Positions 1,353-63,512 of a stretch of DNA of 64,000 nucleotides are shown piece by piece. Where the stretch lies: the NCBI GenBank assembly GCA_963749595.1, contig CAVVNJ010000009.1, positions 1,380-65,379 on the forward strand, read 5' to 3'. The stretch is from Candidatus Woesebacteria bacterium. GTDB taxonomy: Bacteria; Patescibacteriota; Microgenomatia; UBA1400; UBA1396. The translations under genes and the position numbers were made by a program. The notes under the pieces are model-generated. The model saw only the letters and a list, made by a program, of their open reading frames with translations, was not told the DNA's origin and did not search any database. The number at the start of each line of letters is the position of its first letter. Position 1 is the stretch's first letter.

Positions 1353-3299
1353 CTATACACCCACTTGCGGCGCAGCCGTCTCGGTTTCCGTGGCCACGGT
1401 GGGTTGCTTGGCCTGGGCGGCTAATTGCTGCAAAGCAGAAGTAGTTTGCTGCACGTGTGCTGCTTGTTGGGCTCGCGCTTGCTGAATTTGCTCCAACTCT
1501 TCCGGATTAGTGGTGATCACGACGTGTTCTTCCGGCGAAGCAATAACTCGGATGGCAACGTGGTTTTGACCGGCAAAGAACAGGCCTTCACCAACGTCCG
1601 CCGCCAACAACAACCGCTGTTCGCCTTCAGAAAGATAGAAAGTTTCCGCCAAAATCGGAATGGCCGCCGACGACTGTTTGAGTAAGAGTTGAATCGAGGC
1701 GTTGGTGACGATGGCGCGCCCATAATCACTGTGCATGAAGTCTTCCACGTCCTGGGTGATGGTTGTGACGCCCAGGTAATATTTACGGGCGCGCTTGGCA
1801 ATCGAGTGCATGAACGAAGCGGTGTCCCCATACTTCATGAAATACCAGGCTTCATCGACGATTAACTGGCGGCGTTTCTTGGTTTTGCGGACCCGGGTCC
1901 AGATGAAGTCGAGGATGATGAACATTGCCACCGGACGCAGCTCGTCTTCCACATCCCGCACCGAAAAAGCGGTGAGCTGGTTGCGGATGTCGATGTTGGT
2001 GTGCTGGTCAAAAATACCGCGGAACGAACCCTTGATATATTTTTCAATCCGTACCGCCAGGTTTTGACCAGCGGCGTTTTCCATGCCGATCAGTGCTTTA
2101 TACAGGTCTTCCATCAACGGCGGTTCTTTGGTTTGGGTTTCCGGATCCGGCGTGATTCCTTTGGCTTTATACGCAGCCACCATTGCCCGGTCCAAAGTGG
2201 CTTCTTCTTCCGGCGTCATTTCACCAATCATTACTTTCAGCAGGGCGTGCAAGGAAATAATTTTTTGGCCGAGCTCGTTTTCCCCCTCCTCATATACCGC
2301 CGATAAATCGAAAGGATTGATTTTCGTTGGCGAGTTAAAGGAAAAGTTAATATATTCGCCGCCGACAAAATGACACATGTCTTCGTATTCGCGCTCGGGA
2401 TCCAGAATGATGATTTCCGTACCAAACATGGTTTGCCGCAGGGCCTCCAGTTTAATGGCGTAAGATTTACCTGCACCGGATTTGGCGAACACGACCATGT
2501 TGGCATTTTCCAGGCTATAGCGATCAAAAATGATCAACGAACCGTTGTGCTCGTTGATGCCGTAGACGATGCCTTTGTCCATGGTCAGCTCGGAGGAGGT
2601 AAAGGGAAAAGTGGTGGCCAGAGAAGTGGTATCCATGTTGCGAAGAATCTTTAGTTTGTCGACACCCATCGGCAGAGTAGTCTTGAAGCCTTCGTCCATC
2701 TGCAACGTGGCTTTTTTGGAAACCAGCAGCATCGAGCCTAGCAGCGACTGCAGCTGTTTGGTCATCTTTTCCATTTCGTCCAGATTGGGAGCGCTGAGTG
2801 TGACGTAAAGACCGAACTGATAAAAACGCTCGGCGCCTTTAGCCAGCTGTTCCTGCATGCTTTTGGCGTCTTCGAGCTTGATTTCGGTATCAATGTTGCT
2901 AATTTTTCCTGAGCGGATATCGGAGGCGATTTCCGCTTCCATTTCCGTAATTTTTCGCCGCAGATCGTGTAAAATTTCCTTGATGTCAACCGGCGTAATG
3001 TGCATGGCAATGTCTAGCGAGTAAGGAAAGTTGATGACCGGAGAAAGCCAGTTGGCCGGAACCATGCGCGGATAGCCGGCAATGAACAAAGTGCGCGTAA
3101 AGGTGGAGTTTATCTTTTGATAGGTGAAGTCAACCTCGATGCCCTCCGGAGCAATGATGTCCTGAATACTGACCAGTCCAGCGGAGAATTGCTGAATTTG
3201 TTGTTGAAGCGCTTGTTGGTGCAGCTGATCCGCCGCCGGGGCGGTTGCCACCGCTGATTTAGCGCCAAAGGGTAGTTTGAGGTTGCCAAAAAGTGCCAT
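1353..3299 (-). CDS. virB4: VirB4/TrbE-family type IV secretion ATPase
   Basis: Walker A FAKSGAGKSY, Walker B LIVDEAWYF, and a VirB4-like N-terminal domain. 648 aa. Confidence 0.85.
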   Translation of the reverse strand: MALFGNLKLPFGAKSAVATAPAADQLHQQALQQQIQQFSAGLVSIQDIIAPEGIEVDFTYQKINSTFTRTLFIAGYPRMVPANWLSPVINFPYSLDIAMHITPVDIKEILHDLRRKITEMEAEIASDIRSGKISNIDTEIKLEDAKSMQEQLAKGAERFYQFGLYVTLSAPNLDEMEKMTKQLQSLLGSMLLVSKKATLQMDEGFKTTLPMGVDKLKILRNMDTTSLATTFPFTSSELTMDKGIVYGINEHNGSLIIFDRYSLENANMVVFAKSGAGKSYAIKLEALRQTMFGTEIIILDPEREYEDMCHFVGGEYINFSFNSPTKINPFDLSAVYEEGENELGQKIISLHALLKVMIGEMTPEEEATLDRAMVAAYKAKGITPDPETQTKEPPLMEDLYKALIGMENAAGQNLAVRIEKYIKGSFRGIFDQHTNIDIRNQLTAFSVRDVEDELRPVAMFIILDFIWTRVRKTKKRRQLIVDEAWYFMKYGDTASFMHSIAKRARKYYLGVTTITQDVEDFMHSDYGRAIVTNASIQLLLKQSSAAIPILAETFYLSEGEQRLLLAADVGEGLFFAGQNHVAIRVIASPEEHVVITTNPEELEQIQQARAQQAAHVQQTTSALQQLAAQAKQPTVATETETAAPQVGV

Positions 3300-3300
3300 A

Positions 3301-4161
3301 TTAGCGTGGTCCTGTGGTAATGGGAGTTATAGTAGCGGCGGGTTCGGTGGGAATCACCGGCGCGGTCGGCGGAGGAGCGCTGGCAGTTGACTCTGTAATT
3401 GGGGGAATCGGGGTGGTAATTGGTGCTGAGGCGGCCGCAGGTGCAGGAGGCGGGGCTAAGGGAGTGGCCATTCCTTGGGCAGAAATTACGGCGGTGGAAT
3501 ATTCGCGAGTGTCCACTACTTTTGCTCCCTCCGAAGCCTGGGGATTGTAGGTCACGTAAAACAAGTAGATTAAATCCTTGGTTCCCAAAACCCTGGCCCG
3601 CAAGCCTAGCCGGGCGCATTGGTTGATCATGTGATCTCGGCGGGGAACCAAGACAGTCGTTGATTTCTCGATAACGTAGCGCTTGTCAATATTTGGCGTT
3701 GCCCTTTTTGGGGTCACGGCGGATAGTGGATTGGCGGCCGAAGCCAGACCCAGTTCCAGGGCGGATAGGGGCAGTACAACATAGAAAGTTTTGTCGAGCA
3801 CATTTTGTTCGGTAATCAGGTTTGCCACGAATTGACGATAAGCGGCGATTTGCTGGCGGCGCAGTTCGTTGGGGGCGTGAGTTAGTTGTTCGTCGATATA
3901 GCGGAGATAGTTGGTTACGTCCTTGGGCTTGGATTTGATCAGGATTTGAATCGGGAAAGAGAGAGAATTGATCATGGCCGCGTAGGCATAGATGATGGCG
4001 TCTTGTTCCGGTTCGGACAGCAAGCCGAAGTTAATGGCGCTAACCTGCAGGACCATTGAGCTGGAACCATCTTTCAGGATTACCAGGTCGTTAGTGATGT
4101 CCAGAATATCGAGATAAGTCTGGGTAGTGGAAGACAGGTGGACACCCGTGTCTTTGGCCAT
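3301..4161 (-). CDS. hypothetical T4SS-associated protein resembling the N-terminal non-ATPase region of Gram-positive VirB4-type proteins, with a Pro/Thr/Ala-rich tail
   Basis: Tightly coupled to virB4. N-terminus reads LDILDITNDLVILKDGSSSMVLQVSAINFGLLSEPEQ. Confidence 0.6.
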   Translation of the reverse strand: MAKDTGVHLSSTTQTYLDILDITNDLVILKDGSSSMVLQVSAINFGLLSEPEQDAIIYAYAAMINSLSFPIQILIKSKPKDVTNYLRYIDEQLTHAPNELRRQQIAAYRQFVANLITEQNVLDKTFYVVLPLSALELGLASAANPLSAVTPKRATPNIDKRYVIEKSTTVLVPRRDHMINQCARLGLRARVLGTKDLIYLFYVTYNPQASEGAKVVDTREYSTAVISAQGMATPLAPPPAPAAASAPITTPIPPITESTASAPPPTAPVIPTEPAATITPITTGPR

Positions 4162-4175
4162 ATGCTAGTAGTATA

Positions 4176-5393
4176 TTAGCCGGAGGCGGTGATGTCGACC
4201 GGGTCTAGAATTGTGCCTGTGCTGGAAAAGGCGTAAATAGGAAAGGTCAGCCCCTCTTTTTCGGTGTGAATAGTGTACTCGCCGTCTTTGAGCGGCGAAG
4301 ACATATAGAACTGGCCGAGGTTATTGGTTTTCATCGCCCGGACTGTTGTATTACCTTGATCAATCACCTCGACGATCGCGCCCGGAGCAATATGGCGTTC
4401 ATGATCGTGAACCATGCCGATCAATAGATTTGGTTTCTCCGAGCTGGCTGGGAAAGGTAGATCCTTGCTGAAGACAACCGGGATGATTTTTTCGCCATGA
4501 CTGATTTTTTCTTCTGTTCCAGCCTCAAGATAAGGAGCAGCCGCGATGGCGGTTAACCCCTCTTCGGAAGGTTCAGCAACCGAGGTGGCCAGCGGAGTAG
4601 GGGTAGTTGACTCAACGACAATTTTTTCCATTGGGACCACAACGGCAGTGGCGGTGCGGGGCGCTGGAACCGAGACTTCGACTTCCTCAGGGGGTAGAGG
4701 TGCCTGATCAACCCGAGGAGCGGCAGGCAAAACATTAGTGGTGGTCCCGGGAGCCGCGGCCGCAAAGATAGAAATGGCGGAGGGAGCGTTGGCCATGGTA
4801 GCGATGGTAGCTTTTTCAACTTTTTGGCGGAGCGGCCGCGGCCTGGCCTGGAGGGCAGGTTTGCGCAGAAGTTGGGTTTTACCCGGTACCACGTTGCTGG
4901 CGGCCTCCACTTGCCCGAACAAAGCTCCAATGGCGGCACTTTGCCGGAAGAGGTCTAACTGGTCAACCGGAGCGGCGATTTGTTCCGGAGTGAGGCTGGA
5001 TAAGAATTCCTTGACCTGAGTAGTGCGGTAAGGGGTGAGATCAGGGCGTTGTGATTCGGCCATTACGCCAGGAGAGGGAACAAAAGTGAAGAAGTCGGGT
5101 ACCCGGGCAATCCGTCGCCAGTAAAACTTGGTGGGGCGGTACATGGCTTTCAGAAAATTAAGCAGCCATTGGTCTAGGGAGCGCTCTTCATAGGGCAGGA
5201 AAGCCAAAGCAATGCCGACAATCACGGACAACACAATGATCGGCCACTTGATGAAGGTTGGTAAATTGGTGCTGTAAATTAGGAAACCAACCACGCCGCC
5301 GGCGCCCAACAAAACGAACTGCTTGATCGTCATGTTGCCGATTAGGCGAAATTCGTAGGCGGTGATGTTTTGCGGTACTGGGTGTTCAATCAT
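4176..5393 (-). CDS. PrgI/VirB3-like membrane protein with a C-terminal carboxypeptidase-regulatory-like beta domain
   Basis: N-terminus YEFRLIGNMTIKQF followed by two TM helices (PrgI-like). C-terminus NLGQFYMSSPLKDGEYTI. Confidence 0.55.
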   Translation of the reverse strand: MIEHPVPQNITAYEFRLIGNMTIKQFVLLGAGGVVGFLIYSTNLPTFIKWPIIVLSVIVGIALAFLPYEERSLDQWLLNFLKAMYRPTKFYWRRIARVPDFFTFVPSPGVMAESQRPDLTPYRTTQVKEFLSSLTPEQIAAPVDQLDLFRQSAAIGALFGQVEAASNVVPGKTQLLRKPALQARPRPLRQKVEKATIATMANAPSAISIFAAAAPGTTTNVLPAAPRVDQAPLPPEEVEVSVPAPRTATAVVVPMEKIVVESTTPTPLATSVAEPSEEGLTAIAAAPYLEAGTEEKISHGEKIIPVVFSKDLPFPASSEKPNLLIGMVHDHERHIAPGAIVEVIDQGNTTVRAMKTNNLGQFYMSSPLKDGEYTIHTEKEGLTFPIYAFSSTGTILDPVDITASG

Positions 5394-5411
5394 GGATTTA
5401 CTCTTTGTTCA

Positions 5412-6086
5412 TTATGGCAGATCGCTGGCAAAGACGATCTCGATCTCTGCCGGAACGCCGACTGTTTTCAGCAATTCTCGTTCAGTCTGAATAATTTTTT
5501 GCTTCTCAGAAAGGCTGAAAACCCGATTGGTACCGATGACAATTTTATTGATATCATCGTGATAATAGAGGGTATAGCTTTCTCTTTTTAGGGGAAAAGC
5601 TTGAGCGAAAGGATTGTCCTGATAAAACTTTTCCACGGTTCGAGAAAATTTTACGTCCAATTGACTTTGCAACCCTAGCGCTTGTTCTGGTGAAAGGTCG
5701 TCGAATGAGGCGGTAGACCAATTTAGTTTTCGTTCATAGCGCTCGCAGGTAATCTGCAGCTCGACTTTTGTTTCCAGCGGCCAGTAAGTTTTGGGCGTGA
5801 CACTAATAATGTTTTCGCTTGTCCGCTCGGTAATAATTTCCTGATCACCACTAGACACTTGGCAACCGTACAAATTCGGATCGCTATCGAAATTGAGTCT
5901 TACCGCGTCAAGGGGAAAGAGTTTTTTTTCAGCGGTTGGCGTGAAAGAAAGTAGTCTGATTGGTGGACGTGGCAGAACGGCCCGGATGAATAGGGTGAGG
6001 ATTAATAATCCGGCGGCCAAAACTACCAAAGCCGCCAGCCAATTTTGGTTGATCCACCGAAGCCAAAGATATAATTTCTCGCGCAT
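5412..6086 (-). CDS. membrane-anchored hypothetical protein (T4SS-like operon)
   Basis: N-terminal TM helix; operon context. Confidence 0.6.
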   Translation of the reverse strand: MREKLYLWLRWINQNWLAALVVLAAGLLILTLFIRAVLPRPPIRLLSFTPTAEKKLFPLDAVRLNFDSDPNLYGCQVSSGDQEIITERTSENIISVTPKTYWPLETKVELQITCERYERKLNWSTASFDDLSPEQALGLQSQLDVKFSRTVEKFYQDNPFAQAFPLKRESYTLYYHDDINKIVIGTNRVFSLSEKQKIIQTERELLKTVGVPAEIEIVFASDLP

Positions 6087-6094
6087 ATCTTCCT

Positions 6095-9000
6095 TTATAG
6101 TAGTACCTCTGGGGCAGCGGCGCCACCCGGTGAGGGGGAGGGTGAAGCACCGCTAGAACAGGCTCCACCCAATTCCTTGGGCGGCAAACCGAAGTAATCG
6201 ATCGTGATGTCGCCCGACATTTGGGTACGTAGCACCTCGCCGTCGCGAATGTTGTAGTTAACTTGCGTGCGGAAGTTATTGGAGTCACAAGTGGTAAAGG
6301 TGCCGGTACCGTCGCTGTTCAGGTCGATATTACAGGCGATGGCCACATGATCGTCGCCAGACTCAGGATTTTCTACACCAATGAAAACGGCTGAACCCAG
6401 GGGAATTTCCTCAGCGTCCAGATTTTCGTTCTTAATTACTTCATTAACCTTGGTTGGCCACTCTCCTCTCATGCCATGTACACTAAGATTGGTGGAAACT
6501 GGTAAAGAGTTTTCCTGGTAAGTTTTTACTACCAACCACGTGCACCAAAAGAGGTCAGCACCGTTTCTCTCCCGACCTCTTTTCTTAAGAGCGACAAAGT
6601 AATCCGGTTCCGCATAGCCCAAAATCGACTCGCCGGTTTTCGGGGTATAGGAGTTGTAGAGCTCAAAATCGAATAGTTCCGGCCAGTTAGGATGGTAATT
6701 GTAGTATTTCCACCACCGTTGCTCTAGACCGTTAGAGATCTCGATTGCCGTTTTTGCGATTCGATCATTGCCTTCAAAACAAAACGAACGTTTTGGTCCC
6801 CCGGCGCCCTCGCCAATGGCACCCAGAGGCAAATCATTGAGCGAGCCTCCGATGACGCTAAAAACTATGAAAGTCATGAAAACGGCAAAAGCCATGGGTC
6901 CAAAAACCGCGCCAAAAACCACGGCGGTCGGAGCGGCCGCTGAAACGGTGCCGGTCAGGAATGAGTTGGTCGCATCAAAAGAGGCGAGCAAAGTTGAATT
7001 AGCGGTATTAGTCGCGGCGGGCACGATCTGGCTGGTCGCAATTTTTCCAGTGGTGGCGGCGTTGGCGCCCACTTCTTTGCCTATGGCCGCGGCCGTGGAG
7101 CCACCGGTAATCGCCCCGGAGGCACCCCCGGTGATGCCATTAACAACGCCACCAAAGAAATTGGAAAGATTATTAGCCGCGCCAGCGGCAAAGTTGTACG
7201 CGGCGGCGGCGGCGTCCGCGATAGCCCTAGCGGCTTCCAGAACTTTCAACCAAAAAAGAACGGTTGGCGCCATTAGCAACGCGCCGCCGCCAATAAGATA
7301 GGGCATCAAACGCCTGGCCTCAGCAATCAAGGCCTCCCTAGCCTGAGCATCAGTCAGGAATTTTTTTAAGAGCATGGCTGGGTTACCACCACTCGCAATC
7401 AGGGCCATTAGTAAGGCGGCGCGTTGTTGGGCCACCTTCGAATCGGCGGCTTTCTGTTGTTGTTTGGCAAAATTACCATAGTTTTGACCCTGCATTTGGG
7501 CCATCTGAGCCTGTTGTTGGGGGGACAGATTGGCGCCGCCGGGAACTGGATGGCCGGCGTCGTCATAACCCGCCACCATTCCGTCCGCCAGCATAGCAAG
7601 AGTTTGCCGCGGATCGGCATAAAATTGCTGCATGACGAGAGCGATGTTGGCGTTCGGATTCTTCTCAAAAGCAAAGGAAATCACCGCCTCCATCAAGAAA
7701 GTTTCTCGGGTATGGACGGTGGCTTCCTGCTCGGTTACCTGTTCCACTTTGGCGACATTCAAGCTGGCGCCCCCGGGAGAAACAAAGCTGTTGGCAAAGA
7801 TTTTTCCACCGGCGGTTTGGCGGGCCTGGTTGATCTTATCCTGCAGAATTTGGGTGGCCTTTTGTTGGCGAGCCAGCAAAGTATGAATCTCCGCCAACTC
7901 GCTGGCGGTGAAGAGAAAATCAGTTTCGGCAGGATAATTCTTTACCATCAGCCGGAAGATTCTCGCTAACTCCTGCAACTCGCTAGCGTTTAGTCCCTCC
8001 TTGCCGTTGAGCTGAGCGAAGACCCGCTGGTCGTTAGCCGACAACTTGGGGAATTCATTTTTGAGCAGGTAGGTGATGATTTTATTGCGGTCACCGCTGC
8101 TGAAGGCGTCGGCCGCCAAGCCAGCATCGGTTTCTAAAAATTGTTTGCCGGTTAAAATTTCCTTAATTGTGTTCCGGCGCTGTTCTTGGGTTAGTAGATT
8201 GGCCTTTTGCGCCACCAAGGCTAGTTGTTCAAAGGTTTTTAGCTCGAGGTTTTCAAAAAGACCCTCGATTTCCGCGATCGAGTACCCAGCGCTGGACATG
8301 GTTTGGAGAAATTCGTCTCGCGCCTCTCGTGAGATTTTCGAAGGAGCGACTTGTTTTTCCACCGAGATCCGGTCGAGATTTTTCTGAACCACTTCCGTCC
8401 AGATCGTGGCCATATCAGAGAATTTCAGATCCCGGGCCAAACCGCCGCGCTGAAGGAATTCCAACCAGATTTGTTGAGCTACCGTTTCGCGATTGCGGGC
8501 AATGATCTCGTCGATTTCTTTGGGCGAAATTTTTTGTTTCAACAGGGCGGCGCGTAGTTCTTCTAGTCCCAAAGAAACCATGGTTTGTTGAACGTGGACG
8601 AGCTCGCTGATGGTCTTGCGCGCCTCCGGCTCCGTCAATTCCGGACCGGTCGGAACCGGTGTTACCAGTGCTCCGGGTGGGGTGACGGCCGGAGTTGGGG
8701 CGGCGCGAGCGGCTTCCTCGGTTGGCAGGAAGCGCTTGGCTGTCTCAGCTACGCTGGTCACTAGCCGGTCGACGAAATTACCCAGCTGATCGTAAGAAAT
8801 AGCGGCATTTTCTTCCCGGGAATCAAGATCTAGGTCAATGACGGCCTCTAAGTCGCCAATATTGTAAAGTTGGGCCCGCTCATAAACGATGTCCAAATTC
8901 TTGGCCGCATCGGCCAATTCCTGTAGCGCATCGTTGCGCGTGGTGAAGTCGGGGATTCCGGCCAGTTGGGCGAAGAGCGGCTTAAGCCGGGACTTGGCGC

Positions 9001-10060
9001 CAACTACTAACTCGCTTTTATCGCCGGCTTTGGCAACTTCCTCAGTTGGCTGTTCCGCTCCGCCACCTCCTTCCGGGAGTGGAGCTGCCGGTGGGGTCAG
9101 AATGGCTTGTAGAGCGGCCTCGAAAGCGGTCTGAGCCTTTTTACTTTCGTCAGCAAATTGTTTTTTTAATTCTTCAAGTTGCTTTTCTAAACGGGGAAAG
9201 TAATCAACCTGAAAGAAAGTGTCCGCTTCGAGTTCAGCGGCAAACGGATCGGCATTAAGGTCCGGAAAAGCCAGCAGAGCTTCGACTGTTGCCGCCTGTA
9301 ATTCGCCCTGCTCCTTAGCGGTCTTGAGAACCTCGTTAATCAAGCGGGCGCGACTATCGGATTGCCAAATCTGTGTCCATTGTTCTTCTAGAATTTTTTC
9401 TAGGGTTTTATCGAGCGGTTCTTGTTGCTGGTCTTTTTCTTTTTTGAAAAGGGCTTCTTTGGCTTTCTTTTCCGGTTCGGGTAGGGCATTGAGAGCCTCC
9501 CGCAACTGGCTTGTTATCTCTAGATCAACCCCTTTGTCGAAGCCACCGAGGATCTCTTTCAGTTTTGGGTAATTCTCTTTTAATCTCCTTAATATTCCCG
9601 ATTTTTCAAGCCAATCCGATAGTCTTTCCCGCCGCGGATCGATGGCTCCAGCAACCACGGCTGCCTTGGGAATCATTAGGGGATCGATCCGCTTAATCCA
9701 CTCCTCAATGGGGGTCGAAGTTTTGCTGTCCTCAAATCCAGGGGCAATTAGTTCTTCCAGTTTCTGGACCTCAGCCAATTGGGCGGGCTCTAAAGTAATG
9801 CCTGCTTTGCCGATCCAGATTTGGAAAAGTTCCGGAAACGCATCTTTAACGAATCCGTGTAACTGACGCTTAACCGACTCGACTTCAAAGACCTTGGAAC
9901 CGAGGGTAACATTTTCTTTGCCCCGATTGATCGCCTTACGCAGCGGGTTGAGAAATTCTGTCTTGAACTGGTCCCAGGTTTTATCCTCAAAACTAAAATC
10001 TTTCAGCGCATCAATCAGTCCGGTCGGATCGCGAAATTTGATGGGAGAGTCATCGGCCAT
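6095..10060 (-). CDS. giant T4SS-associated protein: helical N-terminal region, multi-TM Gly/Ala-rich segment, C-terminal CHAP-like cysteine peptidase/amidase
   Basis: CHAP-like Cys motif LFWCTWLV and His motif GDDHVAIA near the C-terminus. ATG at 10060 lies 9 nt after a TATAAT. The longest ORF uses GTG at 10102. Confidence 0.7.
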   Translation of the reverse strand: MADDSPIKFRDPTGLIDALKDFSFEDKTWDQFKTEFLNPLRKAINRGKENVTLGSKVFEVESVKRQLHGFVKDAFPELFQIWIGKAGITLEPAQLAEVQKLEELIAPGFEDSKTSTPIEEWIKRIDPLMIPKAAVVAGAIDPRRERLSDWLEKSGILRRLKENYPKLKEILGGFDKGVDLEITSQLREALNALPEPEKKAKEALFKKEKDQQQEPLDKTLEKILEEQWTQIWQSDSRARLINEVLKTAKEQGELQAATVEALLAFPDLNADPFAAELEADTFFQVDYFPRLEKQLEELKKQFADESKKAQTAFEAALQAILTPPAAPLPEGGGGAEQPTEEVAKAGDKSELVVGAKSRLKPLFAQLAGIPDFTTRNDALQELADAAKNLDIVYERAQLYNIGDLEAVIDLDLDSREENAAISYDQLGNFVDRLVTSVAETAKRFLPTEEAARAAPTPAVTPPGALVTPVPTGPELTEPEARKTISELVHVQQTMVSLGLEELRAALLKQKISPKEIDEIIARNRETVAQQIWLEFLQRGGLARDLKFSDMATIWTEVVQKNLDRISVEKQVAPSKISREARDEFLQTMSSAGYSIAEIEGLFENLELKTFEQLALVAQKANLLTQEQRRNTIKEILTGKQFLETDAGLAADAFSSGDRNKIITYLLKNEFPKLSANDQRVFAQLNGKEGLNASELQELARIFRLMVKNYPAETDFLFTASELAEIHTLLARQQKATQILQDKINQARQTAGGKIFANSFVSPGGASLNVAKVEQVTEQEATVHTRETFLMEAVISFAFEKNPNANIALVMQQFYADPRQTLAMLADGMVAGYDDAGHPVPGGANLSPQQQAQMAQMQGQNYGNFAKQQQKAADSKVAQQRAALLMALIASGGNPAMLLKKFLTDAQAREALIAEARRLMPYLIGGGALLMAPTVLFWLKVLEAARAIADAAAAAYNFAAGAANNLSNFFGGVVNGITGGASGAITGGSTAAAIGKEVGANAATTGKIATSQIVPAATNTANSTLLASFDATNSFLTGTVSAAAPTAVVFGAVFGPMAFAVFMTFIVFSVIGGSLNDLPLGAIGEGAGGPKRSFCFEGNDRIAKTAIEISNGLEQRWWKYYNYHPNWPELFDFELYNSYTPKTGESILGYAEPDYFVALKKRGRERNGADLFWCTWLVVKTYQENSLPVSTNLSVHGMRGEWPTKVNEVIKNENLDAEEIPLGSAVFIGVENPESGDDHVAIACNIDLNSDGTGTFTTCDSNNFRTQVNYNIRDGEVLRTQMSGDITIDYFGLPPKELGGACSSGASPSPSPGGAAAPEVLL

Positions 10061-10069
10061 GATATCTGA

Positions 10070-10084
10070 ATTATATGCTAGAAT
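10070..10084. promoter_or_regulatory. back-to-back divergent -10 elements for the T4SS-like operon (-) and the pilin array (+)
   Basis: Minus-strand TATAAT (10070-10075) and plus-strand TGcTAGAAT (10076-10084) lie inside a 34-bp spacer. Confidence 0.5.
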
Positions 10085-10094
10085 CGACCTAGTT

Positions 10095-10427
10095 ATGAGC
10101 ACACTCTTAGCTCAAGTTGACTTGGAAAAAGCTTTCCTTTTAAACCCGAAGGGCGACACGGTCGCCGATACTTTTGCTAACCCGGCGGCTCTCATCAACA
10201 TTATCCTGCCCAACCTACTGGTTTTTGCGGGAGTACTGCTGTTTATTTTCACGGTGGCCGCGGGTTTTAAAATGGTGATGAGTCCGAGCGGACAAAAAGA
10301 ACCCGGACGAGGGCAAAAAGCGGATCAGTTACGCGTCGGTGGATTTGTACTGTTGTTCATTTCTTACTGGATCGCTCAGATTGTGGAAAATTTCTTAGGA
10401 ATCTCGATATTAGGGGGGACGCCATGA
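10095..10427 (+). CDS. T4SS pilin-like two-TM protein (divergent member)
   Basis: Two hydrophobic helices separated by a short polar loop, like the downstream paralogs. Confidence 0.55.
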   Translation: MSTLLAQVDLEKAFLLNPKGDTVADTFANPAALINIILPNLLVFAGVLLFIFTVAAGFKMVMSPSGQKEPGRGQKADQLRVGGFVLLFISYWIAQIVENFLGISILGGTP

Positions 10428-10876
10428 TGGCTTTAATTGCTCAGGATAATCCGTTCGGCGAGATCCAGCCGCCGGAGGCGTCTGGAGAAGGGTTTTGGGA
10501 CTTTGGGCAGCGGCGGAGCAGGTTTGACCGGATTTATTTCCAACGGCGTGGTTTTGATTACCATGATCGGCGGAATCTGGGCGTTGTTTAATATTCTTGA
10601 CCGCCGGCTTGGCGGTGATCACGGCTGATGGCGACCCGAAAAAGCTTGGGCGAGATGACCGACAAGATCAAGAAAAGTTTTATCGGTTTGCTGATTATGG
10701 TGTCGGCGCCGCTGCTGGCGGCGCTAATCGGTCTCTTCTTCTTTGGCGACGCGTCATTTCTGCTCCAACCGACGATCTTAACCCCGGAGGACCATAATAT
10801 GATGCGCAACTTGTTGGCTCAGGGTCTGGAATTAGGAGGCGAGCCAATTACGGGCGCTGGTCCGCTTGGGCGATGA
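10424..10876 (+). pseudogene. T4SS pilin-like gene interrupted by three frameshifts
   Basis: The family-like sequence is only continuous by reading frame 2, then 0, then 1, then 2. Shifts lie near 10495, 10600 and 10640. Confidence 0.6.
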
Positions 10877-11199
10877 TGGCTGGCAAAGATGCTCCTCTAT
10901 TTTTTGAGGAGCAACTCTCGAACATCATCGGTTTCATCACTCTGCTGGGTGGAATTTTTTTCATCGTCTTCTTTTTGATTGCTGGTTTCGAATGGCTCCA
11001 GGCCGGAGGCGATACGGGCAAAGTCGAGAAGGCCCGGTCGCGGATGATCAATGCGGCGATCGGCTTGTTGGTGATGATCCTGGCGACGGCGCTGATCGGC
11101 ATTATCAGCGGCGTGTTTGGGTTTGATATTCTCAATCCGGCCGAGACATTCAGACAATTAATTCCCTCTACCGGAAAAAGTTTCATCAGGACGCCGTAA
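10873..11199 (+). CDS. T4SS pilin-like protein (TrbC/VirB2-type, two TM)
   Basis: AGGDTGKVEKARSRM loop between two TM helices. Confidence 0.75.
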   Translation: MMAGKDAPLFFEEQLSNIIGFITLLGGIFFIVFFLIAGFEWLQAGGDTGKVEKARSRMINAAIGLLVMILATALIGIISGVFGFDILNPAETFRQLIPSTGKSFIRTP

Positions 11200-11220
11200 A
11201 GTGGTAGGATCAATAAAAGC

Positions 11221-11643
11221 ATGAAACAACTCCTCCTGGCCCAAATCACCAATCCCGCCGTTCCGGCTCTGGAAACCGTCAGCGGCGACAGCGCGACTTT
11301 TGGCGCAACCGTACTCGGCCAATACATCGGTATCCTGATCCAGACCTCAGCCGTTCTCGGTGGATTGGCCACTTTGCTTTATATGTTCATGGGTGCGCTG
11401 CAGTGGATCACCGCCGGCGGCGATACCGGAAAGATCGACAAAGCTCGTGGTCGGATGCTGCAGGGTTTAGTAGGTCTGGGTGTTTTGGTTTCCGTGGTCG
11501 GTATTGCCAGCTTTATAGGCCCGGTTTTCGGACTCGACTTACTGGCGCCGACGTTTATTAATCAACTCTCCGGCGGGTCTGGACGCTCAGGAACGATTAA
11601 AACCTTACCTGGTCTGCCCCTAATTCGATATGAGGTACCGTAA
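11221..11643 (+). CDS. T4SS pilin-like protein
   Basis: AGGDTGKIDKARGRM loop between two TM helices. Confidence 0.75.
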   Translation: MKQLLLAQITNPAVPALETVSGDSATFGATVLGQYIGILIQTSAVLGGLATLLYMFMGALQWITAGGDTGKIDKARGRMLQGLVGLGVLVSVVGIASFIGPVFGLDLLAPTFINQLSGGSGRSGTIKTLPGLPLIRYEVP

Positions 11644-11652
11644 AGGAAATAT

Positions 11653-11961
11653 ATGTTATCTGTTTTCCAAGCCACCGTCGACATCCGAGGCAACCTAGGT
11701 GGCGGCGTGGCTGGTCAGACCGATCTTGGCGTAATAGTCGCTGGCTTTCTGGGAGCGGCGATCGTTATTGCGGCCCTATTATCTTTTGGCTATTTGGTGC
11801 TGGGAGGCCTGGCTTGGGTCATGTCTGGGGGCGACAAAGGCAAAGTCGAATCCGCTCAAAAGAAAATCACCCAAGCGATTGTTGGTCTAGCGTTAGTCGC
11901 TGCCAGCTACGCGTTGTTCCAAATCGTGCAGTACTTCTTTGGGATTCAAATTTTGGAGTAG
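11653..11961 (+). CDS. T4SS pilin-like protein
   Basis: SGGDKGKVESAQKKI loop between two TM helices. Confidence 0.75.
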   Translation: MLSVFQATVDIRGNLGGGVAGQTDLGVIVAGFLGAAIVIAALLSFGYLVLGGLAWVMSGGDKGKVESAQKKITQAIVGLALVAASYALFQIVQYFFGIQILE

Positions 11962-11968
11962 TCCTGAA

Positions 11969-11997
11969 TTGACAGCGAAAATAGGGTAATATACAGT
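11969..11997 (+). promoter_or_regulatory. putative promoter of the last pilin gene
   Basis: TTGACA at 11969, then TATACA/TACAGT 15-17 nt downstream. Confidence 0.4.
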
Positions 11998-12025
11998 TAA
12001 AAGAAGAAATAAAGAGGAGAGAAAC

Positions 12026-12439
12026 ATGAATGCGAAAAAAACTCTGGCTGCCTCCGCTGCTTCCGTAGCTGGTTTGTTGGCTTCCACTTCCTTGGCTTTT
12101 GCGCAAGAGGCGCCGACCATTACCGTCAGCTCTGAAAAAGCGAACGTCAAGATTACCGACATTGGTCAGCTGCTGTCCGGATTTATCGGTGCCATGATCT
12201 TGGTTTCGGCATTGTTGGTTTTCGGTTACTTGGTGCTTGGAGGTGTCCAGTGGATTACCTCTGGTGGTGACAAGGGCAAAACCGAAGCCGCCCGCAACAA
12301 GATTACCGCCGCTCTGGTTGGCTTGGCAATCGTGGCTTCTGCTTACGCCTTGATGCAGATCATCGCTTTCTTCTTCGGCGTCAACATATTTGGCACCGGA
12401 ATTACCGAAACCATCAACGTTATTCGGCCTTACAACTAA
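12026..12439 (+). CDS. T4SS pilin-like protein with signal peptide (candidate major pilin)
   Basis: Strong RBS AAAGAGGAGAG, signal peptide ending AFAQE, SGGDKGKTEAARNKI loop, own terminator. Confidence 0.8.
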   Translation: MNAKKTLAASAASVAGLLASTSLAFAQEAPTITVSSEKANVKITDIGQLLSGFIGAMILVSALLVFGYLVLGGVQWITSGGDKGKTEAARNKITAALVGLAIVASAYALMQIIAFFFGVNIFGTGITETINVIRPYN

Positions 12440-12454
12440 ACTCGAAATTAGAAA

Positions 12455-12483
12455 AAGAAGGGCTCCGTCAGGGCCCTTTTTTG
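12455..12483 (+). terminator. rho-independent terminator
   Basis: AAGGGC-9 nt-GCCCTT stem followed by a T-run. Confidence 0.6.
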
Positions 12484-12559
12484 TGCCGGGGTGCGGGCGG
12501 TTCATTTTTCACAATCCTTTTCACGAGTTTGGGACATCTATATCCCGCCAGGTTTTTGC

Positions 12560-12905
12560 GCCCAAAATGGTCCGTAAATGTTCCAGTGATGTTTCCTTAA
12601 CAGTCCACAATCGGTCCCGGTTTGGCCATTGTTGCCAAAATGGGGACCTTTTGGGTACCTTTAGAGTGCCGACTTAAAATTAGGGACTTTATGTGGACCT
12701 TTTACGGACCATCTCGGTCGGCTGCAGAAAGTGGTGGATATTGGGAGCCGTACTCAATCGAACTCGATAATAACCCCACTAGACTTCACATCCTGGACTC
12801 AAACAGTCCCCGAAAAGTCCCCAGTTTAAAATTGGCACCGAGATGGCTCAGAGAAAGTCCCTAAACTACCACTCTGGACCTAAATGGTACCGAAATGTTC
12901 CTCCC
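12560..12905. repeat. ORF-poor region with about 12 GGAC[CT]/[AG]GTCC motifs and a 20-nt direct repeat
   Basis: AAATGGTCCGTAAATGTTCC (12566) matches AAATGGTACCGAAATGTTCC (12882). GGACCTTTT and GTCCCC words recur. Confidence 0.5.
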
Positions 12906-13088
12906 AATGGATTTTTCCAGTGCCACTGCCAACCCATCAGAGGCGCAATTCGGCGGGCAGATATATGTTCCCAGCCATGAACTCGACCATCCGGCTCATT
13001 GGAGTTTCAGGGCTGATTTCTATGTACTAGTACATGAAAATGGGAGAAGTGTTTTTCCTGATGGGCAACCAATCGATATTAAGAGAAA

Positions 13089-14783
13089 TTAAGACTCGGC
13101 GGAAACGTTTTCGACAAATTCCGGCGTCGTCCGCACCGTCTTGCTCCACTGGGAACGCAATCGCTGGTAAATTCTTTGCAGAATGCGCAGCTCCTCAATC
13201 CGGAATAACCAACACAACCCTAGGTAAACAGCACTGCCTAGACCGGTAACTGAAATCGTTAATTGCAACAAAGCCAGTGTGCGGGAGGTTTCAAAAACGT
13301 ACAAATCGAACAACCGCTGAAAGACAAAGAGCGTTAACGCCATTAGAAATGCGGCCAGACCAGTTCTCGATAACGAATCGACTAATTCATGGACGCCATC
13401 CAACTTGATTCGCCAAACCAGCAAAATGAGGAGCAGTGACATTTCAATGATACCCGCGACCGTCAAGGCGATCGCAATTCCTTTCAAGCCGAGAGACATC
13501 TGAATCACGAACAACCAGCCCAAAAATACCGTCAAGATAAAGTAGAAAATTGAAACGATAAAAGGCGTAATGGTGTTGTTGAGGGCATAAAATGCCCGGA
13601 TTAATAGATGGGTTGCTGCCTGGGGGGCGATCGATAAGGCCAAATAGCCCAAGGCTTCAGCGGTCAAGAGAGTTGCCCGCCAGGGTAGATTATCGGTTCC
13701 ATAAGCCAGACGGACGATCGGTACGCGTAGGATTAGCAGTAAAACGGAGGCGGGGGCCGCAAAAAAAGCAATTTGCCGCAGGGAACGGAAAGTCGTTGAA
13801 CGAAATCCGGTTAAGTCGTCATGGCTGGCGGCCAAAAAAGGCAGCGCGGCTTGGCCGATCGAAAGACCAAAAAACCTGATCGGCACCGACATCAGAGCTT
13901 GGGCGTAATTTATGAGCGTTAAACTCAGTCCGCCAATGGCGGTAGTAAAGAAGGTAATGGCGAGTAAATTTAGTTGGTTCAGCCCTAGAGTCAGGGTGCG
14001 AGGTCCGGCCAGCTGAACCAGATGCTTAAGGTCGGCTTTTTTCCAGCGGGGGGACAAATCCAGACGCCACCCAAGTTTCCAGGCCAGCGGAATTTGAATT
14101 AACATGTGGAGAAAAGCTCCGAGCACCGTTCCCCAAGCTGCCGCTAATAATCCCAACTGACGGTTGGCGATCACTACCATCAGGATAATGCCAATGTTGT
14201 ACATGACCGGACTAAAAGCGGGAACGATGAAGCGCTTGGCGCTCTGCAGCATGGCTGAGAAAAAACCGGACAGGGCAAATAAAATTTGAGCCAGCATCAT
14301 GACGCGGGTCATAGTGACCGCTAAATCATGTTGCGTCTGATCAAATCCCGATCCAGTGATCAAGCTGACAAAGCCGTCTGCCCACAAGGCGATGATGATG
14401 CCGGCGACGGCGAAGATTCCCAGCAGCACCAACATTGCCTGATTAGCCAGATTAAAGGCCTCGGTTTTTTCATCTTTGTAGAGTTGAGTGAAGAGGGGTA
14501 GGAAAGCTGAAGAAACCGCTCCTAGAACGATCAGCTGGTAAGCAAACTCCGGCACCCGGAAGGCTACCCAGTAGGATTCCAGCAAATAGTGACGTGTTTC
14601 ACCGACCAAGTAACTGTACTGATCATTAATGAAAAAAGCCCCGAGGACGCGATTTTTGAGCAAGCCAAAAATCGCGGCGGCAACCGTGGCGGTCAAAATA
14701 ATAAAGGCCGCCGACAAGATCGAGGTCTGTTGCGACTCGATCCAAGAACTTTGACGGCGGAACCAGCGAGCCAGCGCTTGCAT
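13089..14783 (-). CDS. murJ: lipid II flippase MurJ/MviN
   Basis: 564-aa polytopic membrane protein with a MurJ-like N-terminus and repeated TM pattern. Confidence 0.8.
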   Translation of the reverse strand: MQALARWFRRQSSWIESQQTSILSAAFIILTATVAAAIFGLLKNRVLGAFFINDQYSYLVGETRHYLLESYWVAFRVPEFAYQLIVLGAVSSAFLPLFTQLYKDEKTEAFNLANQAMLVLLGIFAVAGIIIALWADGFVSLITGSGFDQTQHDLAVTMTRVMMLAQILFALSGFFSAMLQSAKRFIVPAFSPVMYNIGIILMVVIANRQLGLLAAAWGTVLGAFLHMLIQIPLAWKLGWRLDLSPRWKKADLKHLVQLAGPRTLTLGLNQLNLLAITFFTTAIGGLSLTLINYAQALMSVPIRFFGLSIGQAALPFLAASHDDLTGFRSTTFRSLRQIAFFAAPASVLLLILRVPIVRLAYGTDNLPWRATLLTAEALGYLALSIAPQAATHLLIRAFYALNNTITPFIVSIFYFILTVFLGWLFVIQMSLGLKGIAIALTVAGIIEMSLLLILLVWRIKLDGVHELVDSLSRTGLAAFLMALTLFVFQRLFDLYVFETSRTLALLQLTISVTGLGSAVYLGLCWLFRIEELRILQRIYQRLRSQWSKTVRTTPEFVENVSAES

Positions 14784-42636: not shown

Positions 42637-44776
42637 ATGGCCACCCCGCAAACCGTCAAAACCTCCAACCGCCACATGGCGCAGAACCGGATCCGCAATA
42701 TCGGCATCATTGCCCATATCGACGCCGGTAAAACTACCACAACCGAACGCATTCTGTATTTCACCGGCAAATCCTACAAAATCGGTGAGGTGCATGAGGG
42801 TGCGGCCATCATGGACTGGATGGAGCAGGAACGAGAGCGCGGTATTACCATTGTTTCCGCGGCCACGACTACTTTCTGGACACCGGAACTGGACACGGCT
42901 ATGCCGCATGAGCCGTTCCGCATCAATATCATTGACACTCCCGGCCACGTCGACTTCACTGCTGAGGTGGAGCGTTCGCTGCGCGTTCTGGACGGCGGTA
43001 TCACCGTTCTGGATGCCGACAAGGGCGTGCAGTCCCAGTCCGAAACCGTCTGGCGCCAGGCTGACAAGTACAAAGTTCCGCGCATTTGTTTTGTCAATAA
43101 AATGGACAAAGTCGGAGCCAACTACAACTTCGTGGTCAATGACATCCGCCAGAAATTTGGCGTCAAACCGGCCGCGATGGTCTTGCCCATGGGCGCCGAA
43201 GGCGAGTTCCGTGGCTTGATTTTACTTTTGGACATGAAAGCGGTGTACTGGAAGGACCAAGAGCCGGAAACCGATTACGAAATCATCCCGATTCCCGAAC
43301 AATTCCAGGCCGAGGCCGAGGCCATGCGCCACACTCTGGTCGAGCAGATTTGCGAGACCGATGAAGCCTTGTTGGAGAAATACTTCAACGGCGAGGAAAT
43401 CTCGGTCAACGAACTGAAAGTCCGCGCTTGCGCAAAGCCGTCATTAACTACGAGTTGGTGCCGGTGTTTGCCGGATCTTCCCTGCGCAACATGGGCGTTC
43501 AGCCTTTGTTGGACGCGGTGGTTGAGTACTTGCCCTCTCCGGAAGACATCGTCGAAATCACCGGTACCAATCCGCGCAATAACGACGAGAAGTCGTCCGC
43601 AAGTTGGTGCCGGAAGAAAAGCTGGCCATGCTGGCTTTCAAGATCCAGACCGATCCGCACGTTGGCCGCATTACCTACTGTCGTATTTATTCCGGCAAGC
43701 TGTCGGCCGGTTCCTATCTGTACAACGCCACCCGCGATCTCAAAGAGCGCGTTGGCCGCGTCCTGCTGATGCACGCCAACCAGCGCGAAGAAATTGAAAC
43801 CGCTTTTTCCGGTGAAATCGTGGCCTCTGGTCGGCTTGAAGGACACCCGCACTGGCGACACTCTTTGTGACGAAAGCGCCCCAATCCTGTTGGAAGGCAT
43901 CAGTTTTGCCGAACCGGTCATCTCTTTGGCCATTGAACCCAAGACCAAAGCCGACCAGGAAAAGATGGGCGTGGCGCTGCAACAAGCTGGCCATGGAAGA
44001 TCCCGACTTTCCGCATCAGCGTCAACCAGGAGACCAACCAGACGGTCATTGCCGGCATGGGCGAGTTACACCTGGAAATTTTGGTCGACCGCATGAAGCG
44101 CGAGTTCAAGGTTGGCGCCAACGTTGGTGCACCGCAGGTGGCTTACCGCGAAACCATTTCCAAGAACATTGAATCCGAAGGCAAATACATCAAGCAGTCC
44201 GGCGGCCGTGGCCAGTACGGTCACTGTTGGTTGCGGTTGGAGCCCAAGGACCGCGGCACCGGTTTTGAGTTTGTCAATGCTGTTACCGGTGGCGCCATTC
44301 CCCGCGAGTTCATCTCGCCGATCGAAAAAGGTGTCAAGGAAGCCATGGCGAACGGCGTAATGGCCGGTTTTCCGCTGGTGGACATGAAGGTGACGGTCTA
44401 CGACGGTTCTTACCACGACGTTGACTCTTCGGAAATTGCTTTCAAGATCGCGGCCTCGATGGCTCTGCAGGACGGCGTCAAGCGCGCCGGGATGCAGTTG
44501 CTTGAGCCGATCATGAAGATCGAAGTGACGACCCCCAAAGATTTCATGGGCGACGTGATTGGCGATTTGTCATCCCGGCGCGCGCAAATCCAAGGCTCGG
44601 ACGAGCAGGGAGCGGCCGTGATTATCAAGGCGCTGCTTCCGTTGGCTGAACTCTCGAGCTATGCTACAATTCTTCGTAGCATGACCCAGGGTCGCGCCTC
44701 CTACTACATGGAGCCGAGCCACTATGAGGTCGTGCCGTCCGGCATCGCCCAAGCGATTATCGAGAAGCAAAAATAA
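42637..44776 (+). CDS. fusA: elongation factor G, interrupted by 5 frameshifts in this assembly
   Basis: AHIDAGKTT and DTPGHVDF motifs. The EF-G sequence continues through frames 1, 0, 2, 0, 1, 2, with shifts near 43426, 43590, 43826, 43983 and 44008. Confidence 0.9.
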
Positions 44777-62909: not shown

Positions 62910-63512
62910 ATATACCGGACCGAAAAATAAGCTCGCCCGCCAGTTGAGCCAAGACTTGGGCTTGAAGTCGAACCCGCTCAAAGTAGCGCGTCGCCTTAAT
63001 GTTCTGCCCGGAATGCACGGCCGCAAGATGCGCCGCAAAACTTCGGATTACGGTCGTCAACTGTTGGAAAAACAGAAACTGCGGTTTGCTTACGGCGTTC
63101 AGGAAAAATACTTACGTCAACTTTATGGTCGTAGCCATGAAGACCCCTTCCGCTACCGGTCAGGCCCTGCTAAAACTATTGGAACGCCGCCTGGACAATG
63201 TTGTCTTTCGCTTGGGTTTTGCGCCCAACCCGCGCCGCTGCCCGCCAGCTAGTTACCCACGGTCACGTCCAAGTTAATGGCAAGCGCCTAAGCATCCCGT
63301 CTTACCGCGTTTCGATTAGCGAAACCGTGGCCCTGGACGACAAGGCCGCCAAAATCCCTTACGTCGCTGAGCTCTTGACCAGCAAAACCGTTGGTCTGCC
63401 CAAATGGTTGGAGCGCCAGGCCACCGTTGGAAAAATTGCCGCTTTACCAGAACGAGAAGATATCACTGAAGGCGTGGACGAGCAACTCGTCGTTGAGTAC
63501 TATTCAAGATAA
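62902..63512 (+). CDS. rpsD: 30S ribosomal protein S4, two frameshifts in this assembly
   Basis: [13 protein letters not shown] start. The S4 sequence continues across frame changes near 63130 and 63226. Confidence 0.9.

Follow-up and report, generated by a model that had tools for sequence, protein, structure and literature searches.

Six predicted VirB2-like pilin genes in conserved order beside a monoderm-type secretion operon in a Woesebacteria genome

Six small reading frames on the + strand, which we call g1 to g6, occupy positions 10095-12439 of a 64-kb stretch of Candidatus Woesebacteria DNA (contig CAVVNJ010000009.1; the whole stretch is called the window here), as given by its list of open reading frames (ORFs). 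A preliminary description of the sequence took them for six tandem two-helix paralogues, and the ORFs, family matches and profile comparisons bear this out; the loop strings that it quoted from between the two helices are exact. The most divergent pilin-like paralogue, g1 (10095-10427, 110 aa), has the loop SPSGQKEPGRGQK, which does not contain the GGDxGK motif. As assembled, g2 (10424-10797) runs over three frames, and when corrected it encodes 123 aa with the loop ADGDPKKLGEM. The third gene, g3 (10799-11199), carries the loop AGGDTGKVEKARSRM; its ORF as assembled covers 10873-11199 (108 aa), and the corrected protein has 133 aa. These are followed by g4 (11221-11643, 140 aa, loop AGGDTGKIDKARGRM, N-terminal signature MKQLLLAQITNPAVP), g5 (11653-11961, 102 aa, loop SGGDKGKVESAQKKI) and the putative major pilin gene g6 (12026-12439, 137 aa, hairpin tip SGGDKGKTEAARNK). 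A scan with position-specific hidden Markov models (HMMs) found no further PF18895-like gene elsewhere in the 64 kb.

The array diverges from an operon on the - strand (1353-10060) which, by its Pfam matches and by a gene order identical in the two closest related loci, is a type IV secretion system (T4SS) of the monoderm type of Patescibacteria. The VirB4 gene of this operon lies ~6.8 kb from the array, and no relaxase gene was found near the array, as in published Patescibacteria arrays. With at least two tandem PF18895/PF04956 genes near virB4 in a Patescibacteria genome, the array fits the definition of Quiñonero-Coronel et al. (2025, PMC12102498), who searched 3,035 Patescibacteria genomes with these two families, obtained 441 arrays of 2-11 pilin genes and found them abundant in Microgenomatia. 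A VirB2-like pilin array in this phylum is a known and published kind of locus, and the positional orthology and promoter layout described below refine the published picture. Metagenome-assembled genomes of Woesebacteria, Microgenomates and 'Patescibacteria group' contain the closest homologues of g6. A tblastn search with g6 against 72,556 plasmids gave no match, and so did not connect the gene to any known conjugative plasmid.

Scanning a single genome for each species yielded 80 related loci, which belong to Woese-, Collier- and Gottesmanbacteria and further Microgenomatia; every ORF in these loci was sorted with six position-specific HMMs. The closest two, L001 (g6 83% identical) and L002 (g6 77% identical; GCA_964511175.1), share the synteny of the window and have six intact small genes. 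The exact order g1-g2-g3-g4-g5-g6 occurs in 33 of the 80 loci, and most of the others have the same order minus g4 or an ambiguous call between g5 and g6; array size differs between lineages, from 5 to 7 genes or more. Each array position has its own consensus signature, for example LPN...YWIxQ for g1, FG.I..P...FisN...GD.Kk for g2, ItNpAvp...LwqT for g4 and WITSGGDKGKTeeARnrITAALVGLA for g6. The gene at 10095, which had been described as a degenerate copy, belongs instead to a conserved type of orthologue that has a signature of its own. The most conserved position is g6, with a mean pairwise identity of 0.57 compared to 0.40-0.46 for the other positions.

The Pfam gathering scores are 26.6 bits for PF18895 (T4SS_pilin) and 27.9 bits for PF04956 (TrbC/VirB2). 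In agreement with the expected membership in PF18895, g3 (45.0 bits) and the frame-corrected g2 (35.4 bits) score above the threshold of this family. Weaker matches under the threshold are made by g4 (24.8 bits, E 2.4e-5), g6 (24.2 bits, E<=1e-3) and g5 (19.7 bits, E 9e-4). The window g1 matches neither PF18895 nor any other Pfam family, and its orthologues in L001 and L002 reach 28.2 and 22.2 bits with PF18895. Counted by independent E-value (i-E<0.001), the family is found directly in four genes, and in all six after correction or profile analysis. It also matches all 46 aligned g6 orthologues (best E 2.1e-11), and the position-specific HMMs recognize the window copies of g1 and g4 with 145 and 176 bits.

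Profile-profile comparison used a 34-member alignment for each array position, taken from the related loci. All pairs of positional profiles, including those of g1 and g2, aligned in hhalign with 97.7-100% probability (98.7-99.3% for the g1 profile against g2-g7), whereas reversed profiles, a control that keeps composition and hydrophobic runs, gave 0.3-3.8%. By these sequence comparisons the six genes are homologous pilin paralogues of the PF18895 type, either directly, after frame correction or via their orthologues.

The AF2 (AlphaFold2) model of g6 has helices at residues 3-25, 46-78 and 83-117, with a loop at 79-82 (SGGD) and a predicted local distance difference test score (pLDDT) of 88-97 in the hairpin. 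The model for the g2 orthologue family has the corresponding helices at 32-65 and 70-105, joined by a loop at 66-69 (ADGD). Since the hairpin turn is only four residues long, most of the 15-residue 'loop' of the preliminary description would be the charged start of helix 2. Invariant residues of g6 cluster at 65-108, and the N- and C-terminal tails are least conserved. A crude hydropathy segmentation of transmembrane segments cut the long helices apart and was set aside for topology.

By sequence features, g6 is the only one of the six window proteins with a Sec-type signal peptide (residues 1-26, 12026-12103), which begins MNAKK, continues with an Ala/Ser/Leu-rich h-region and ends in AFA before QE; the first helix of the AF2 model (3-25) covers it. 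The N-termini of g1-g4 and g6 are enriched for a much shorter leader ending [LIVMF][LIVMFA]AQ, usually 6-8 residues long (in g3, 17 of 34 sequences compared to 1.0 expected). The leaders of g1-g5 have 6-8 residues and end in LLAQ. In the window the positions concerned are 10095, 10424, 10799, 11221 and 12095-12106, and the short leader aligns on the A-Q site of those g6 proteins that bear a signal peptide. This MxxLLAQ leader may be a common maturation site, or it may be the remnant of a lost signal peptide.

The expression signals divide the array into two parts. Upstream of g1 is an extended -10 promoter-like element, TGCTAGAAT (10076-10084, +), which ends 10 nt before the g1 ATG; this ATG is itself 34 nt from the ATG of the divergent gene (10060). 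Of 34 loci, 20 have a TGnTAnWAT pattern no more than 30 nt from the g1 start, compared to 0.22 expected, and in 18 of those 20 loci it is located 6-11 nt from the ATG. No array has a Shine-Dalgarno (SD) sequence for g1 (duplex free energy, dG, of 0.2 kcal/mol in the window and a median of -2.9 across the 33 arrays in canonical order, on which all spacing and SD statistics are based). Because the extended -10 is so close to the ATG and g1 has no SD, the g1-g5 transcript is probably leaderless or near-leaderless. The median gap before each of g2-g5 is 2-7 nt; the window g1 and g2 share an ATGA overlap, and g3 follows g2 after 1 nt. SD duplex energies for g1-g5 have medians of -2.8 to -7.1 kcal/mol.

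The gap before g6, in comparison, has a median of 63 nt and measures 64 nt in the window. It contains a strong SD, AAGAGGAG (12012-12019, +; dG -9.0), consistent with a median g6 duplex energy of -8.9 kcal/mol and values of -8 or below in 76% of arrays. An internal sigma70-like promoter element, TTGACA-17-TACAGT (11969-11997, +), is found in the same gap and has 10 of 12 consensus matches. By itself this element is not significant (2 found compared to 3.4 expected). Across the loci, however, 59 of 78 have a -35/-10 pair at the g5-g6 junction, compared to 13.9 expected; L002 and L005, for example, have TTGACT-18-TACCAT. Downstream of g6, at 12460-12482 (+), is a hairpin resembling an intrinsic terminator, GGGCUCC-GUCA-GGGCCC, with a U6 run after it; its predicted fold has -18.3 kcal/mol in context (z -1.86), in agreement with the terminator assigned there earlier. 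A pattern-based terminator scan missed this hairpin because its stem is bulged; the matches that the scan did return were at chance level inside genes and were discarded.

In the preliminary description, g6 alone had a promoter and a strong ribosome-binding site. The g6 signals are indeed conserved, but there is also a promoter-like element before g1, and strong SDs precede g2 (-9.9) and the ancestral g3 start at 10799 (-9.5). The additional promoter, wide gap, strong SD and terminator make g6 the likely major subunit, and the earlier suggestion of one major plus several minor pilins fits this conserved set of signals.

Taken together, these observations lead us, with modest confidence, to view the locus as a conserved six-gene cassette of VirB2-like PF18895 pilins that belongs to a chromosomal monoderm-type T4SS, with g6 as the major pilin, g1-g5 as minor pilins and all six genes intact. 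Each product would form a membrane hairpin of two helices joined by a loop. Its tight GGDxGK-type tip, together with the basic start of helix 2, would point into the cytoplasm while the protein is in the membrane pool and into the lumen once the tube is assembled, and the more variable N- and C-terminal tails would face outward (an N-out/C-out topology). Under this model, g1-g5 would be co-transcribed as a leaderless message from the extended -10 promoter abutting the g1 ATG and, being translationally coupled, made at a low level, and the additional internal promoter, strong SD and terminator would supply g6 in excess. The VirB4/VirB3/VirB6-like machine would pull g6 from the membrane and polymerize it into a filament or a conduit that reaches the host cell. 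By analogy with type IV minor pilins, g1-g5 would then act as non-redundant minor subunits, for example in priming or at the tip or base, and not as interchangeable antigenic variants.

Such non-redundant roles are consistent with the pilin series in the T4SS cluster of Southlakia epibionticum, which is essential by transposon sequencing (Tn-seq; Wang et al., 2023, PMC10633639). A more specific proposal, which we make tentatively, is that the assembled product is a heteromeric VirB2-type structure, composed of the major pilin g6 and a fixed, ancient set of five specialized minor hairpin pilins, with a seventh in some lineages. To our knowledge, a major-plus-five-minor arrangement of hairpin pilins is present in no characterized T4SS; those systems use one pilin plus VirB5.

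Several points weigh against the cassette model. The division into major and minor subunits is based solely on promoter, SD and spacing signals. The g6 signal peptide is restricted to the clade of the window: many lineages have a g6 that opens with M(L/F)xLLAQ, a leader of 6-7 residues lacking an h-region, and a signal-peptide-like N-terminus is found on g4 or g5 instead in some lineages. Thus, the cleavable signal peptide ascribed to g6 earlier is predicted by sequence features in the window copy, but is absent from g6 in many lineages. A search with TrbC/VirB2 models had also been proposed, and g6 scores only 14.4 bits (E 0.045) with PF04956, well under the gathering score. A profile built from 46 g6 orthologues matched no PDB sequence at E<=10, and a Foldseek search of the PDB with two models returned generic helical hairpins only (best E ~2), although two-helix hairpins hold little fold information. 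No filament of a PF18895 protein has been observed, and the searched literature has solved filaments from the candidate phyla radiation (CPR) only for type IV pili and for Pam pili, which are unrelated (bioRxiv 10.64898/2026.03.03.709456). Finally, our search for an intact conspecific g2 gave only orthologues of 55-69% identity, and no independent assembly over g2 or g3 was found, the other contigs with an exact g6 being 1.3 kb long and ending in g4. Given the PF04956 score and the absence of a PDB match, the safe label for these proteins is 'PF18895 T4SS_pilin, VirB2-like'.

An alternative that we consider unlikely, but that has several observations on its side, is that no filament is made and the six hairpins are parts of the T4SS translocon, a short stalk or a conduit, such as a hetero-oligomeric ring or channel lining, possibly of fixed stoichiometry. 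Monoderm T4SSs are otherwise without pili (PMC12102498, PMC12857230), five of the six window proteins have no signal peptide, and strict conservation of six types would suit fixed positions in a complex. The lack of any observed PF18895 filament is in line with this idea, as are the transmembrane hairpins retrieved by Foldseek, which include ATP-synthase subunit c. However, weak cross-matches to TrbC/VirB2 do recur, in 5 of the 46 g6 orthologues (best E 2.2e-4) and in the g1 of L002 (17.6 bits, E 0.0046), and the separate high-expression signals of g6 are better suited to a polymerizing subunit than to a ring of fixed stoichiometry.

The frames of g2 and g3 raise the question of whether the array is decaying, with g2 and the 5' end of g3 being real pseudogenes and four or five pilins functional. 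Alignment of g2 to L001 and L002 locates 1-nt insertions at ~10480, ~10596 and ~10646 and a 1-nt deletion at ~10785 in a C run, and the corrected gene ends in TPGGP and a stop at 10795-10797, as in its orthologues. For g3, the ancestral start is the ATG at 10799 with the SD GGAGGA (dG -9.5 compared to -2.2 at 10873). A 1-nt deletion near 10870 removes the first 25 codons from the ORF; the frame-2 N-terminus, MMRNLLAQGLELGG, agrees with orthologue N-termini, and the corrected length of 24 + 1 + 108 = 133 aa equals that of the orthologues. The preliminary description was therefore right that one copy is broken, but g2 has four indels instead of one and g3 is shifted as well.

Five indels in ~400 nt, recorded products for the contig that are fragments only, and the missing conspecific copy would all be expected of decay. 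Nevertheless, the shifted segments of g2 and g3 all read as orthologue-like sequence with no in-frame stops, the corrected g2 passes the PF18895 threshold, and the g2 orthologues are intact in 19 of 19 cases (116-129 aa). In addition, the same kind of clustered frame changes is found in two essential genes of the window. In fusA (43700-44060) the frame goes 2→0→1→2 in ~250 nt near 43.75-44.0 kb, with segments of canonical EF-G, and in rpsD (62910-63512) it goes 1→2→0 near 63.1-63.25 kb, with segments of canonical S4. Over the ~20 kb around the array, gene lengths match those of L002 and there are no frameshifts. Because essential genes show the same pattern, the g2 and g3 indels are most likely assembly errors, and the organism probably makes all six proteins intact; decay of the array is correspondingly improbable. 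As the contig appears to carry patches of indel errors, any 'pseudogene' call in the window should be treated with caution.

The preliminary description and PMC12102498 both raised the possibility that such paralogues are alternative major pilins, serving antigenic or host-range variation. Some features of the arrays agree with a variant repertoire. Identity within the array is low (19-36% between window paralogues, except for g5-g6 at 62%), conservation within g6 is lowest in the tails predicted to face outward, the C-terminal tails of g4 and g5 differ by lineage, reaching ~100 residues in some and absent in the window, and the number of genes varies between lineages. However, the six types are positional orthologues that are conserved over family- to class-level divergence. 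Positional orthologues are 47-83% identical (g4, for instance, is 79% identical to those of both L001 and L002), so that paralogues are not closer than orthologues, and g5-g6 is the only pair with a sign of recent duplication or homogenization.

Nor is divergence accelerated relative to the rest of the genome. Between the window and L002, g1-g6 are 54-79% identical (g6 77%), compared to 72-79% for the housekeeping proteins MurJ, GH18, PBP, Cmk, Ldh and Ddl (MurJ 77%, PBP 75%), 53% for the T4SS neighbor PrgI and 35% for the 1335-aa protein of the same operon. In more distant loci the pilins remain 37-66% identical, and the T4SS machinery falls below BLAST detection. By these identities the pilins show no excess of divergence over housekeeping genes. 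The predicted co-transcription and translational coupling of g1-g5 imply that these proteins are made together and not alternately, and the series is essential in S. epibionticum. Ancient duplication, fixed order and the absence of fast evolution argue for six non-redundant roles, with the six types as ancient and individually conserved orthologues, and make a repertoire of fast-changing variants distinctly unlikely. The remaining reading, that these are unrelated small membrane proteins alike by hydrophobic composition only, could appeal to the lack of a PF18895 match in the window g1 and to three scores under the threshold, but it is refuted by the profile comparisons (at least 97.7% for all pairs, compared to less than 4% for reversed profiles), by PF18895 matches for all six types, which give the HMM support that the preliminary description had made decisive, and by the conserved loop motif and T4SS context.

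Comparison with known systems places the cassette closest to the published Patescibacteria arrays, with which it shares the phylum, PF18895, a tandem arrangement beside a monoderm-type T4SS with VirB4 and PrgI, and low identity within the array (~25% published, 19-36% in the window). S. epibionticum ML1 likewise has six members, described in a 2025 review as structurally conserved, sequence-divergent VirB2-like pilins (PMC12857230). The difference lies in the interpretation. These papers speak of 'tandem amplification and variation', with PMC12102498 likening the arrays to the VirB2 amplification of Bartonella and Anaplasma and suggesting adaptation to different host strains, and PMC12857230 stating only a 'potential to elaborate conjugative pili', whereas the window positions are distinct types that keep their order, diverge like housekeeping genes and have a two-promoter layout. 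The VirB2 arrays of Bartonella, Anaplasma and Rickettsia are also tandem genes beside a T4SS in host-dependent bacteria. Where PMC12102498 cites them, however, they are read as lineage-specific antigenic amplification, in contrast to the ancient, order-conserved and not fast-evolving duplications seen here.

The VirB2/TrbC/TraA pilins of diderms (PF04956) resemble the window proteins in being small two-helix hairpins with a short basic tip, encoded alongside VirB3 and VirB4 homologues, and g6 has a predicted long Sec-type signal peptide ending A-x-A before Q. The window proteins differ in scoring under the PF04956 threshold, in having no significant match to solved pilins and in belonging to a monoderm host with six paralogues, most without a signal peptide, in place of one pilin plus VirB5. 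Type IV filaments (PilA with FimU/PilVWXE, GspG with GspHIJK, ComGC with ComGD-GG) provide an analogy only: they too combine one highly expressed subunit with a conserved operon of divergent, non-redundant paralogues of the same fold, but their subunits have a single N-terminal transmembrane helix plus a globular domain, are processed by a prepilin peptidase and rely on another family of assembly ATPase.

For the window itself, the outcome is mainly a corrected annotation of six PF18895 pilins. More broadly, the T4SS and its pilin series are among the few machines that a cultivated Patescibacterium has been shown to need for its epibiotic life. If a fixed set of six co-expressed types is correct, the hypothesis for these arrays would move from host-range variation to a multi-subunit structure, and each type would have to be knocked down and localized separately. 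The six essential pilins of Saccharimonadia may match the g1-g6 types one-to-one, in which case the set would date to the early CPR radiation.

Some lineages have array genes beyond the six. A seventh, divergent pilin-like gene directly follows g6 in 23 of the 33 canonical arrays (e.g., L009 10405-10842 and L016 10472-10759), and some loci have an additional pilin-like gene pair 5-8 kb upstream on the same strand (L010 141-1203, L014 1311-2439). The window and its closest relatives have neither. The tails, which would face outward, are the most variable part of the arrays. In the closest relatives, g5 orthologues (182-197 aa; L001 9367-9930, L002 9315-9908) carry a C-terminal extension of ~90 aa that is Gly/Ser-rich and then Cys-rich, with at least 6 Cys. 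The window g5, at 102 aa, does not have the Cys-rich extension found in L001, L002, L005, L006 and L011, and in other lineages the long tail is on g4 instead (180-201 aa, L007-L010).

Within the neighboring T4SS operon, all on the - strand, the gene most distant from the array encodes a VirB4-like ATPase (1353-3299; Pfam P-loop_TraG, AAA_10 and CagE_TrbE_VirB). It is adjacent to the gene for a 286-aa protein (3301-4161) whose TraC-like mark comes from its orthologues in L001 and L002, and this is followed by a PrgI/VirB3-like gene (4176-5393; Pfam PrgI). Between PrgI and the last gene is a 224-aa ORF, orf224 (5412-6086), with no Pfam match and no BLAST match in the related loci, which have a gene of 326-334 aa at this position instead. 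The last gene (6095-10060) encodes a polytopic T4SS protein of 1335 aa that likely starts at ATG 10060, consistent with orthologues beginning MADE or MADD, and the GTG at 10102 is an over-extension. It is the fastest-diverging gene at the locus (23-35% identity to relatives). Its orthologues, including those in L001 and L002, have a C-terminal Peptidase_M23 domain, whereas the corresponding ~270 aa in the window (6098-6907) have no Pfam or PDB sequence match. Inspected by eye, this region has a Cys...His pattern (FWCTW...GDDHVAIA) that recalls hydrolases of the CHAP/NlpC type, and a cell-wall hydrolase module may have been swapped in the window copy.

An Rfam scan of 9800-13300 returned no RNA genes. 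The spacer from the g6 terminator to murJ (12440-13088, ~650 nt; 117 nt in L002) has no convincing gene: over 12440-13089 there is no Rfam match, the ORFs have no Pfam match, and blastn and tblastx gave no match to any fetched locus. Two antisense ORFs lie opposite the pilin genes, at 10848-11372 (-, 174 aa) and 11867-12505 (-, 212 aa). ORFs like them are also found across from the orthologous genes of L001 and L002, and neither has support from any protein family. We rejected both as genes; they probably arise from the Ala/Gly/Leu-rich codon usage of the pilin genes.

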